Source: Lama guanicoe (taxonomy: Eukaryota). Taken from it: a stretch of 64,000 bases of DNA. The DNA lies in assembly GCA_013239625.1 (NCBI GenBank), contig MU053513.1, forward strand, positions 454,370 to 518,369. The letters run 5' to 3'. The notes below the pieces were generated by a model, which was not told the origin of the DNA, made no database searches, and worked only from the letters and a program-made list of their open reading frames with translations. Both the position numbers and the translations under genes were made by a program. Positions 32,365 through 50,861 of this stretch are shown in pieces. Each line of letters opens with the position of its first letter. The stretch's first letter is position 1.

Positions 32365-33171
32365 CCCCCAGCTGAAATCTGAGTGTGTCTCCTGTGAACC
32401 CTTTCATGGGGGAAGTTTTGACCATTTATATTGTTCATCCTTGGCTACAAATTGTGGATGGTGGTTACATACAGACAGCTTTCTTTTCTCATTTGAGACA
32501 GATTTGATTTTGACATCTAATTATAACTTTCTTACTTCTTCAGGACACTGGAGGAAAATGTTTTCTGAGAGAAAAAAAAGAAATGAAACCTGTGATTTCC
32601 AGACAATCTTCAAAGGGAAAAGACTTGAATAAGAGAATATGTTGATGTTATACTTTATTCATTTAAAATATAGCCTATTTTGGGGGAAGGGGGATACAGA
32701 TCTTTGTGTCTCCACCTAAAAGCAAATAAAAAGTAATCAGTTTGTCTACTCTATTTTTTTTAATAAAAAGAACAACACTATTACATGGTGATTGCAGAGG
32801 GTCTCCCACATTAGAGGATACTTCCTATGTTGAGGGTGGGGGTGGGGGTGAGGGCGGGGAGCCAAGATGAAAGGAAATGACAGAAAACCTTTTTTTCTAG
32901 CTCCCCGACAGTTTACCCTGCCTCTCATTGAACTATCTCACCATTTCCCAAGTAGAGTTGGAAGGAATGTAACTAGGTTAATCCTGAGGGTGAACTCTTG
33001 AGCAGAAGAGAATGAAAGCGAGGCTTATCTGTCTGCCAACCACAATAGCACCCAGAACAAGGACTCGCACATAGAAGCTGATCAACAAGTACGTATGGAG
33101 GTAATACTTTTGTTAATAACATGAAACTTAACCATACATAAAGTGATAAGAAGATGTTATTATAAGACACA

Positions 33172-33532
33172 GGGAAGATTGCCAAGGTGGAGGAGTAGAA
33201 GGACATATAGCTCACTCACCCTCTCCCACGGATACACTAAAAATTACATCTAAATATGGAAGAATTCCCATAGAACACCTACTGAACACTGGCAGAATAT
33301 CTCTTACTTCGGACACACAAGAAAATCCTCACAAAACCAGATAAACAACAAGGTCCTTCTGTACAGCACAGGAAACTACAGTCAGTACCTTGCAGTAACC
33401 TATAATGAAAAAGAATATGAAAACGAATATAGGTATGTATATTGTATGTATATATATGACTGAAACATTATGTTGTACACCAGAAACTGACACAACATTA
33501 CAGACTGACTATACTTCAACTACAATAAAAAA
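33172..33532 (+). mobile_element. Internally deleted (candidate spliced) LINE-1: 5' UTR start joined to 3' UTR end
   Basis: 33172-33340 (caaggtggaggagtagaaggac...cccatagaacacctactgaacactggcagaa) resembles the cetartiodactyl L1 5' end. 33341-33532 (ataaacaacaaggtccttctgtacagcacaggaaacta...gactatacttcaac..aataaaaaa) is an L1 3' end homologous to 50676-50840. Confidence 0.85.
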
Positions 33533-35944
33533 GTTACAATATAGAGGTGGGATTCAGGATGGGAAAAACTGGATTCTTCGTGAGAAGTCACACTCATTAA
33601 CTCAGCCTTTATCTAGCCACTGCTATGGGCTAAGCATTGTCATCTATAAAATCCATCAGAGGTGCCCCTTCTGTCCACAAATACTCTGCACACATGACTC
33701 CAAGGAACACCATTCTCAGACTTTCTAAGGCACCTGGATCCTCACAGGGCTGTATCAAATATCACTGATGCAATACTGTTGCAACTGAGTAACACTTTAC
33801 TAGCACTTTTCAAGATAAATAAATAAATAAAACTAGTGGAAGTTATGATCATGTGATAAAAGCAAGGGGTGAAATAGAGAACGTTTTGTGAAAGAGATGA
33901 TTCTGGTAAATTTATGAAGTCCCAACAGATTATCAGGACAATAAAATAGTATCTTGCATTTTGGCCACTGTTTGGAAATAAAATACTGGATTAACCTTCT
34001 GAAAACATGTTTAAGTTATGACATGCATTTAATGCAATATAGATGGAAGCAGGTACCATATTGCTTCAAACTCTTCTTGAATTGTGTTCGTGAGGTTTAA
34101 TTTGTAAGATTTATGCATTTCTCCTCTCTTAAACTTCTCATTCTTTGTGAATAAATTTTTTGGTAGAATTCTATTTTTTCTGATTATATAGAGACTTAAC
34201 ATAGTCCTGCCTTTAGTTGAATGTTGAATGTTTAAATACAGCTTTTATGTCAACTGCAAGCTTTTTCTTGTAGCTAGATTATTTTTTGATTTTGAAAAGA
34301 ATAAATCTCTTCCCAAATGGCTTATATTTATCTTTAAAAGCAATTTATAAGGAAAATAAATCTGTCATAATCAGGCCACGCAGACATAGCACTAAAAGCG
34401 TTCTCATATCTGATAAAGTCTGTGAAATAAGAAACAATGTTGATTTTGCTCTTAAAATTTATCATGTCACATAATGGTCTTATATAAAGATGTCAATTTT
34501 AATGTTGGCTGATCCAAACAGGAAAAGAATAACATGAACTGAGGTAGATTCAGCATATGCATTGTTTTGAAATATTTTTAACATAGTTTTCTCTGAAGTT
34601 TAATGATTTTCCCATTGATTAAACATGTCTAGTTGGATTAGGCATATCTGATGTACTGGCAACAAACTTAGATGAATCTTTGGGGGCTCTAGGGTATACT
34701 TGGGGGTTTGGATTTCATTTTCCAGCCTGATTTCATTACAATATAATAAAATGAAGCAAACAGCAGCACTGACATGAGACAAATAATAAAGTTAATTTTA
34801 AGGAATCAGTTAATTACACGCTAATGCTGACTGTGTTTGTGTTCGTGTATGTTAGATTTTTTTCAAGGGGTCTATGTAATACATACAGCATTTCTGTATG
34901 TTCTTTAAAACTATTTAGTACGAAAAACAACGAGAACAATTTTTCTGTCACTTTTTGTTTTGTCTTCTCCAAAATTTGTTCAGTATTATAAATAAATTGT
35001 ATCCATTTGGTAAATTGGGTCAATTATTTTTATAATAATCACGTGGAAATTAGAATTTTCTGGGTATATTATCTAAATCAGATAGTAAATTTATGCCATG
35101 AGTGGCTATTTGGAATACACATCATTTTGCTATTAACTTATTATAAACTGAAAAGGAAGTTTTCATTACCTAAGGCAAAAATTATAAGTAATTTTCAAGA
35201 GTCTTTTAAATTAAAGGATAATGGGAATCCTTTGAGATGCTTCTGACAAGGGACATGTTCTCCCAGTGAGGGTCAGAGTTCAATTCCTGAAATCATCCAT
35301 CAAATTCTGACTGGCGAGGGCTGAATAGCTGTTAAAAAGTAAACGAGAGATAGGGTGCCCTGTCTGACCTCTTGAATCACTTTCATGCACACAGTTCAGT
35401 AAATACACATACCCATTCACAAACACCATACGCAAATAACTATACATTTTAAAAAAGGGCAATTGTGATGAGGAAAAACAAGATTTAAGAGGACCTGGAT
35501 GTGAAAGGATTTTATATATTTGAGATTTTTTTTTCAAAAGCTTATTTTAATTATATCACAGGATAACATCATTTCATACCATTATTTCAGTTGCAAGTAA
35601 GCAGCTGAAAATATTTATTGACGCCCAGGTGTATGCTAACAATTTTGATAATCATGAGAGGAGCAAGAGAATGTTTTGATAAAGGCCCCTCCCTATAGCT
35701 GGTCAGCCAGAACATATCTATTTAGCACTGAGGGTTCCCAAGGAACATGTAACCTGGTGGTGCTTCTGAACGAAATCAAGAATTTAGTGTTCACTTCAGG
35801 TGGTTCCAACTGTACTGCTTAACTACGTTTCTTATGATCGTGTCTTCATGTTAAGGAATACAAGTTAGGTAGTATTTCTTTGAAGTACCTTAGGAGCACC
35901 TACTTAGCCAGTTTCACGTACTAAAATATATTGTAAATTTCCTC

Positions 35945-50605: not shown

Positions 50606-50861
50606 GGGAGATGGGTGGGAAGGGATAGGCTGGGAGTTCAAAATTTGTAGATACTGACAGGCATACGTTGAATAGATAAACAAGATTATACTGTACAGCA
50701 CGGGGAAATATACACAAGCTTTTGTGCTAGCTCACAGCGAAAAAGAATGAATATATGTATGTTCACGTATAACTGAAAAATTATGCTCAACACTGGAGTT
50801 TGACACAATATTGTAAAATGACTATAACTCAATAAAAAAATTTTTTTAAAATAAATAAAAT
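50606..50861 (+). mobile_element. Young 5'-truncated LINE-1 (camelid-type 3' UTR) with perfect 15-bp TSD
   Basis: TSD aaaaatatttgactt at 50591-50605 and 50862-50876; ttt/aaaaa endonuclease site; G-rich tract, AATAAA and A-rich tail. Confidence 0.95.

Follow-up and report, generated by a model that had tools for sequence, protein, structure and literature searches.

Here we describe a 361-base element of the Lama guanicoe genome in which the start of an L1 5'UTR is joined directly to the end of an L1 3'UTR and followed by an A-tail, and which, judged from sequence comparisons, is very probably a retrocopy of a spliced L1 messenger RNA. The element occupies positions 33172..33532 of the window, by which we mean the whole 64,000-nt stretch of DNA that was analysed, and its coordinates, as well as those of its junction and of its AATAAA signal, are confirmed by the letters of the window as a preliminary description had given them (Table 1). 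It starts with GGG / GGGAAGATTGCCAAGG and closes with an A-run, CAATAAAAAAG, at about 33532. At the junction, ATAAACAACAAGG begins at 33341, directly after ...CACAAAACCAG at 33340, and the AG found here is common to both parents, which leaves a 2-nt ambiguity in the joining point. The preliminary description had taken the two halves for an L1 5' end and the end of an L1 3'UTR, and both identifications hold: the 5' half is collinear from its first base with 23 of 25 older L1 5'UTR copies and also matches the beginning of young L1s, some 1.3 kb ahead of an intact ORF1, while the 3' half is collinear in alignment with L1 3' ends. Within the window, relatives were found for the 3' half only, and to identify the 5' half we therefore turned to copies elsewhere in the assembly. 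The window copy is nearest in a tree to the L1 5'UTRs L084 and L094 and derives from L1 subtype B, one of three subtypes set out below; its 5'-terminal box, of CCAAGATGGCGG type, is mutated to CCAAGGTGGAGG. No L1 ORF is present in 33172-33532, where we found only chance ORFs of 32-107 aa that extend into the flanks, and searches of the element for a tRNA-like head with ARAGORN (0 genes) and for an Rfam head (0 matches at E up to 1) were negative. Summed contig depth is very high over 33341..33523, which identifies the 3' part as a highly repeated L1 tail, and L1 3'UTR contigs aligned to the window diverge exactly at 33339, where they are preceded by ...TATATAAAAT.

Table 1. Parts of the mini-L1 in the window and the L1 3' end used for comparison (a slash marks the junction).
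Feature	Positions	Strand	Basis
5' exon-like part: about the first 166 nt of an L1 5'UTR, subtype B, ending ...CACAAAACCAG	33172..33340	+	L1 5'UTR collinearity
Splice-type junction CCAG/ATAAAC	33340..33341	+	Identical junction at 118 places
3' exon-like part: last ~170 nt of an L1 3'UTR, including a variable TATG/TATA microsatellite spot	33341..33523	+	Alignment with 25 L1 3' ends and 73 other mini-L1s
AATAAA (33524-33529) leading into a short A-tail remnant	33524..33532	+	Window read
Comparison piece outside the element: older 5'-truncated L1 3' end with unspliced acceptor	50606..50861	+	TACTGAC at 50652-50658, AG at 50674-50675, then ATAAACAAG

First, the element is one of many. When the 2.05-Gb assembly (55,231 contigs) was searched with the 361 bases, 40 of the 41 matches listed crossed the junction, at 76-100% identity and with the window copy included. 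We counted 22 exact matches to a junction 17-mer (control: 0) and, with as many as 3 mismatches allowed, 118 matches to a junction 26-mer (control: 1). Since 22 of 29 BLAST-found copies satisfy the 26-mer criterion, the total can be put at about 150 or more, and the genome therefore holds at least 118, and probably 150 or more, copies of this structure, which we refer to as mini-L1s. Thirty copies aligned with their flanks share a start at a G-run, ATTGCCAAGATGGCGGAGTAGAAGGAC, are identical in every case at the junction ...CTCACAAAACCAG/ATAAACAAC, and end in A-rich tails beyond which the flanks are unrelated between copies. In a sample widened to 74 copies, the mini-L1 is 335 bp long (166 + 169), and the median K2P distance to a single consensus is 0.137, with the window copy at 0.129. 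A genomic deletion inside a full-length L1 after its insertion, confined to this locus, would have nothing in its favour beyond the missing target site duplication (TSD) at the window copy; it is refuted by the copy number, with the identical junction at 118 places, flanks that all differ and many TSDs, and contigs of four organisms, in which the left flank leads into the 5' half and on to 6 nt beyond the junction, leave it with next to no credence. The repetition of one junction in copies with their own TSDs, which the preliminary description had regarded as support for a spliced family, was thus borne out in at least 118 copies, many of which carry TSDs and A-tails. Two of the junction 26-mers, at G000:C6476:41786323 and 41788248, are identical, have the same two mismatches and lie 1.9 kb apart, which suggests a mini-L1 within a local duplication. 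Scans of metagenomes for the exact junction gave 0 matches, a result that says nothing on other hosts.

Second, the L1s of the same genome contain splice-site-like sequences at exactly the two points that are joined. A pattern made of the 16 bases that lead up to the junction plus a non-A base has 14 matches in the genome, which comprise five older L1 5'UTRs, five mini-L1s with a mutated first base and four unrelated sites. The five older 5'UTRs run on as ...CCAG followed by GTAGG, GTAGA or GTAGC, then by an A-rich run and then by GGAAATCAGTGCAGGACCTGTCCCC-like sequence, and two of them extend to the ORF1 start region about 1.5 kb downstream. The preliminary description had given gtagg as the continuation at this point in related L1 5'UTRs, and this holds for the 5'UTRs of this genome's own L1s. 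With up to 3 mismatches, a donor 28-mer recovers 25 L1 5'UTR sites, against 0 in the control, and in 20 of these GT directly follows ...CCAG. Our samples of L1 5'UTRs, of L1 3' ends and of additional mini-L1s were fetched by patterns centred on the sites, and site frequencies are thereby biased upward, as holds for the base counts in the 25 aligned 5'UTRs: on the putative exon side these are C in 22 at -3, A in 20 at -2 and G in 24 at -1, and on the intron side G in 22 at +1, T in 23 at +2, A in 25 at +3, G in 24 at +4, G in 21 at +5 and A in 22 at +6. The resulting donor consensus in full-length L1s, CAG/GTAGGA, shares 7 of 8 bases with CAG/GTRAG over -3 to +5, the exception being a G instead of an A at +4.

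At the other side of the gap, L1 3' ends read ...GCAGATACTAAC(T/A)ACTATGTATAAAATAG/ATAAAC, and the acceptor 34-mer GCAGATACTAAC.ACTATGTATAAAATAG/ATAAA has 5,167 matches when 3 mismatches at most are tolerated (control: 0). The 3'UTR form TACTAAC-N17-AG/ATAAAC is present in more than 5,000 copies, and no other AG comes between its TACTAAC and the AG at the junction, whose G follows the branch-type A by 18 nt. Seven L1 3' ends collected independently of any pattern have the AG here in 6 cases and TACTAAC, or a form with one mismatch, in 4, and these ends, together with the 30 BLAST-found mini-L1s, agree with the pattern-fetched sets. The branch motif and AG that the preliminary description had read in the L1 3' end outside the element lie exactly where it had placed them (Table 1), and its remark that the acceptor has no good pyrimidine tract likewise applies, the tract before the AG, CTACTATGTATAAAATAG, being poor. 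Because L1 5'UTRs continue with GTAGGA and L1 3'UTRs read ...AATAG before ATAAAC, the missing part begins with GT and ends with AG in the genome's own L1s, as had been anticipated for a spliced element. The roughly 6.5 kb that are missing are thus bounded by a good candidate donor and by a canonical branch motif with a weak pyrimidine tract.

Some side observations concern these sites and their surroundings. The variants CCAG, CCGG and CTGG occur before the junction (positions -3/-2) in mini-L1s and in L1 5'UTRs alike, which suggests decay of a CpG (CCGG) in some source elements; a CpG-based reading of the junction itself was set aside, as the GT and AG positions are unmoved. The comparison copy at 50606-50861 is about 73-75% identical to the mini-L1 3' half, has TACTGAC in place of TACTAAC, and continues into an A/T-rich tail with (AAAT)n-like repeats to about 50870. 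The TATG/TATA stretch of the L1 3'UTR (columns ~88-100 of the 3' half) is microsatellite-like, varies in length among mini-L1s and L1s, and has grown to (TG)n in some copies, for example in the flank copy of L024.

Third, the mini-L1s were inserted in the manner of L1. Flanking direct repeats scoring at least 9 accompany 30 of 74 copies, whereas shuffling of the flanks gave such a score in 6 of 361 pairs, and 22 of the 30 clear TSDs start with AA. An A-rich tail, with at least 67% A in the 12 nt past the element end, is present in 39 of 73 copies, and the L1 5'-terminal CAAGATGG box in 67 of 74, so that these 67 copies are 5'-complete. Across the set, the mini-L1s display the structural hallmarks of L1 insertion, namely TSD, A-tail and endonuclease-type target. 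For the window's own copy no TSD was detected (score 5, which is the control level), in agreement with the preliminary description, which had seen no clean one.

Fourth, the same junction was formed more than once. The L1 5'UTRs form three subtypes, A, B and C, which we assigned by eye and from the tree once the alignments had been seen, and the mini-L1s display the same three: subtype A is recognised by CATATGG...ACAAGGAAAATCC, subtype B by AAAATGG...TTAC-TTCGG...ACAA-GAAAATCC, with TCTCCCT, and subtype C by GGGGCTTCAAG...GAAGATCTTGTACAGTGGAACTAC...AATC(A/T)TCAC. A maximum-likelihood tree was built over 156 columns from 73 mini-L1s, 23 L1 5'UTRs and 3 young L1s, omitting L080 and L091, in which the 5' part is non-collinear, and the gappy m_L134. 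Mini-L1s and L1 5'UTRs are interspersed in this tree: the mini/L1 label changes 21 times, compared with a shuffled mean of 23.2, and 72 of 500 shuffles had changes as few as 21. At least 4 label changes are forced by starred branches, and the mixed starred clades comprise 17 mini-L1s with 7 L1s (99/92), 5 with 4 (98/90), and L029 with L093 (96/86). Mini-L1s formed one clade in no bootstrap tree, and the AU test rejects a single mini-L1 clade (delta lnL 176, p 1e-57). There are some mini-only clades, for example one of 6 rows at 88/90, and occasional copying from mini-L1 to mini-L1 may have taken place.

The 3' halves point in the same direction. Two 3' subtypes were defined from L1 copies alone, with 10 + 10 of 25 copies and 9 diagnostic columns, the remaining 5 (L110, L112, L114, L022x and the L1 3' end at 50606) being left out of the definition. 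The a/b 3' subtype accompanies A- or B-type 5' halves in 59 of 59 cases and the c subtype accompanies C-type 5' halves in 13 of 15 (Fisher p 1.6e-13), the exceptions being L136, which has an a/b-type 3' half, and L131, which is a tie. In addition, a B-type 3' marker, the T in CTTCTG, is found in 10 of 12 B-type mini-L1s versus 5 of 62 others. A full-length L1 with a B-type 5'UTR (L084/L157) has this T in its own 3' end, about 6.8 kb downstream, and in L081/L158, a full-length L1 of type A, the 3' end is likewise of a-type; linkage of the two ends within a parent L1 is demonstrated for types A and B only, as three intervals 5.6-8.1 kb downstream of type C 5'UTRs contain no 3' end of a type C full-length L1, and the downstream interval of the B-type L094, one of two B-type intervals, contains none either. 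From the matching of a/b and c subtypes and from the B-type marker, the two halves of a mini-L1 belong to the same L1 subfamily, as the reading in the preliminary description requires. Distances of L1 5'UTRs and of mini-L1s to the mini-type consensus are 0.111 vs 0.138 for A, 0.102 vs 0.109 for B and 0.142 vs 0.128 for C; the L1 5'UTRs are thus as close to each consensus as the mini-L1s themselves, and the ages match. Consensus differences specific to mini-L1s number 7-8 per type, mostly transitions in comparisons with samples of 7-8 L1s, and none is robust. Since the mini-L1s are polyphyletic and their 3' halves are of matching subtype, the same nucleotide-exact junction arose independently and repeatedly in no fewer than three L1 subfamilies that succeeded one another, and on every occasion it united the ends of a single subfamily. 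Such repeated origin fits splicing followed by mobilisation in trans, and argues against a one-off deletion or a self-propagating SINE-like master.

The latter deserves discussion, as a family of SINE or SIDE type, in which a single deletion or splicing event gave rise to a promoter-keeping master mini-L1 that was then amplified from its own copies, would agree with several of our observations. The L1 5' terminus with its CAAGATGGCGG box, which presumably resembles the YY1 site that positions L1 transcription, is kept in 67 of 74 copies; in comparable pattern searches mini-L1s outnumber recognisable full-length parental 5'UTRs by 118 to 25, about 5 to 1, a rough ratio that depends on the patterns used; and the tree does contain the few mini-only clades. 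However, the polyphyly of mini-L1s among the L1 5'UTR subtypes with its AU p of 1e-57, a mini/L1 label no more clustered than in shuffles (21 vs 23.2 changes), the fact that both halves follow the L1 subfamilies, and the want of robust mini-specific consensus differences all speak against a master, which we consider unlikely and disfavour as the main source of mini-L1s. The 'SINE-like family' of the preliminary description can therefore be retained if 'family' is taken to mean a product that keeps recurring, and the trees and diagnostic sites, which point to repeated fresh origin, do not allow it to be retained as a master lineage. Because mini-L1s arose afresh from one L1 subfamily after another, promoter function in the copies themselves is neither needed nor shown.

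We infer that the junction was made by the spliceosome and that the resulting RNA was mobilised in trans, as the preliminary description had proposed in suggesting that both ORFs were removed as one intron, a proposal that our comparisons support. In primary transcripts of long-ago active L1 subfamilies, a 5' splice site near nt 166 of the 5'UTR (CAG/GTAGGA) would have been used together with a 3' splice site about 170 nt ahead of the poly(A) site, where a TACTAAC branch consensus is followed after 18 nt by the first AG and by ATAAAC. About 6.5 kb, consisting of the remaining 5'UTR, ORF1, ORF2 and the start of the 3'UTR, would have been spliced away as one intron, and the capped, polyadenylated, ORF-less RNA of about 335 nt would then have been inserted through target-primed reverse transcription by L1 proteins supplied in trans. 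The same would have happened in no fewer than three L1 subtypes in succession (A, B and C), yielding copies that look like a family and are mostly independent by-products of L1 expression with no mini-L1 master copy.

A recurrent template jump of the L1 reverse transcriptase from the 3'UTR to a hot spot in the 5'UTR, favoured by RNA structure or the AG microhomology, might also join the two ends, and both the 2 nt of AG common to the two sides of the junction and the template jumps and internally deleted L1 insertions reported from cell-culture assays (PMC3414825) would be in line with it. A microhomology of 2 nt is, however, too weak to account for one exact junction in more than 100 events and three subfamilies, and by our own rough estimate, with three possible placements, an arbitrary deletion would have GT/AG boundaries by chance in about 1% of cases. 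Moreover, the donor fits CAG/GTRAG at -3 to +3 and +5, the acceptor has the TACTAAC branch consensus 18 nt before the first downstream AG, and, of 36 exact 16-mer sites, the 34 examined showed no other junction, these 34 being 23 mini-L1s, 7 continuous L1 5'UTRs and 4 unrelated sites. We therefore regard a template jump as quite improbable and favour splicing as the origin of the junction.

The mini-L1s are old. Median distances to the type-specific consensus are 0.108 for A, 0.101 for B and 0.133 for C (range ~0.10-0.13), which under a typical, uncalibrated mammalian neutral rate corresponds to tens of millions of years, and the youngest mini-L1 sampled lies 0.051 K2P from its type consensus. 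Young L1s with an intact 322-aa ORF1 are numerous (loci L031-L060), which indicates that L1 has recently been active in this genome. The 5' ends of young L1s are homologous to the mini-L1 5' half, and CAG/GTAGGA is absent from 3 of 3 copies (L032, L044 and L053), which read ...AAAAATCTG and then CCCACC or GGAGGAGG. Young L1s were accordingly rejected as parents of mini-L1s, since their 5' ends are homologous but without this motif and the youngest sampled mini-L1 stands at 0.051. We note that young L1 5'UTRs contain a GC-rich repeated part that is interrupted by N-gaps in the assembly, and that matches to the L1 ORF1 domain in frames of 1734 aa and 611 aa (G000:C2114:3704032-3704322 and G000:C3175:12748889-12749179, both on the minus strand), compared with the usual 322 aa, may reflect ORF1-ORF2 read-through or fusion in single L1 copies.

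How do mini-L1s relate to known derivatives of retrotransposons? In human L1 RNA, nt 97 of the 5'UTR serves as a splice donor (PMC2896524), human L1 RNAs spliced from a 5'UTR donor are reported to be retrotransposed (PMC5860796; PMC2896524), and the first report of human L1 splice sites is credited to Belancio and colleagues (cited in PMC5860796). The resulting spliced integrated retrotransposed elements, or SpIREs, of human L1 (Larson et al., 2018; PMC5860796) are described there as amounting to about 2% of full-length L1PA1-6, as having intra-5'UTR or 5'UTR/ORF1 deletions with ORF2 kept, and as evolutionary dead ends; 116 SpIRE97/622 are distributed across L1PA1-PA6 and thus recur over successive subfamilies (PMC5860796). 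Similar to SpIREs, mini-L1s have an apparent splice donor within the initial ~100-170 nt of the 5'UTR, a GT..AG gap, TSD and A-tail, and recur across subfamilies. In contrast to SpIREs, which keep ORF2 and mostly ORF1 and of which most are able to act in cis, the mini-L1 has its acceptor in the 3'UTR and retains neither ORF, so that mobilisation must occur in trans; and whereas SpIREs make up about 2% of full-length L1s, mini-L1s exceed the recognisable parental 5'UTRs by the rough factor given above. An ORF-less element with a 3'UTR acceptor is, in that respect, a new class relative to the SpIRE classes described, and by analogy the mini-L1 may be viewed as the ORF-less extreme of the human SpIRE phenomenon.

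Internally deleted derivatives of non-LTR elements, known as SIDEs, are called rare (PMC6740152); for the Persaeus SIDE, no fewer than four origins are reported, with break points that vary and that are flanked by a 5-bp repeat (PMC6740152), and an L1 SIDE had, according to PMC3414825, not been observed, which is explained there by the cis-preference of L1. Like SIDEs (R2 and R2/R1 SIDEs, Ag-Sponge, TbRIME and Persaeus), mini-L1s consist of both LINE termini with no coding interior and a shared junction. SIDEs, however, are deletion derivatives that then propagate, whereas the mini-L1 junction is nucleotide-exact, of GT-AG type and remade from each L1 subfamily; mini-L1s do not form the non-autonomous lineage of their own by which SIDEs are defined, a single clade being rejected. 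The resemblance to processed pseudogenes is closer, in that each mini-L1 would be an intron-less copy of a spliced, polyadenylated Pol II transcript made by L1 in trans, with TSD and A-tail, and each copy an independent event from the source gene or genes; GT-AG intron removal, a poly(A) tail, TSDs and independent insertions, which characterise processed retrocopies, are all found in mini-L1s. Unlike in processed pseudogenes, the source is L1, the 'mRNA' is ORF-less and the copies per transcript type are very many. HAL1 (half-L1) keeps ORF1 and forms lineages of its own; like HAL1, the mini-L1 is a non-autonomous L1 derivative mobilised by L1, and unlike HAL1 it has no L1 ORF at all. Finally, mini-L1s share with LINE-tailed SINEs and SVA that they are short, non-autonomous and L1-dependent and that they have an L1-type 3' end with an A-tail, the 3' part being shared with the partner LINE as in SINEs; they differ from SINEs in that the head is an L1 Pol II 5'UTR instead of a Pol III-type small RNA and no master lineage is seen. 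In the openly accessible articles searched, which included camelid surveys of transposable elements, we found no description of a 5'UTR-to-3'UTR spliced L1 family, and the accessible text of a paper on transposable elements in Camelus (PMC8605555) makes no mention of a spliced mini-L1 family.

An apparently spliced, ORF-less L1 RNA has repeatedly left at least 118 copies, about five times the count of full-length parental 5' ends that can be recognised. L1 proteins have a strong preference for their own encoding RNA. We tentatively suggest, as a possibility that we rate below even, that over a long period a spliced RNA of about 335 nt, consisting of nothing but the first ~166 and the last ~170 nt of L1, leaked from at least three subfamilies in succession and was mobilised in trans more often than full-length L1 was inserted. 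If this is true, two short termini would suffice for privileged access to the L1 machinery, as a 'minimal L1 RNA', or cis-preference would be weak in this lineage, and the missing donor CAG/GTAGGA in young intact L1s (3/3) would be a candidate case of L1 escaping a parasite made by its own splicing. Mini-L1s thus provide a natural data set on the efficiency of trans-mobilisation of L1-derived RNA, two short L1 RNA termini that are candidates for the smallest pair able to recruit the L1 machinery, and a concrete case in which splice sites within L1 persist over evolutionary time and then vanish in a younger lineage. In annotations they also readily pass for 'L1 5' fragment + L1 3' fragment', and are hence missed or miscounted as full-length or deleted L1s.

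The locus itself is older than the divergence of several sampled organisms. Sequencing runs of five organisms contain 81-87% of the sampled words of the locus, and in four of them (X1, X2, X5 and X13) contigs lead from the left flank across the 5' half and end 6 nt beyond the junction, and on the other side enter the 3' end from the right flank. As these contigs cross from the flank into the element in four organisms, the locus predates their divergence. The contigs of X1, X2, X5 and X13 break off at 33346 and restart at ~33473-33490, because the 3' half is a high-copy repeat, and under the 31+31 rule none of them bridges the element; the whole element is nevertheless likely to be present in all four organisms. 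In the window, the element is flanked by a G-rich (GGGGT)n-like run (32836-32860) and by an (AAAT)n run (33815-33832), and summed contig depth is raised at both.
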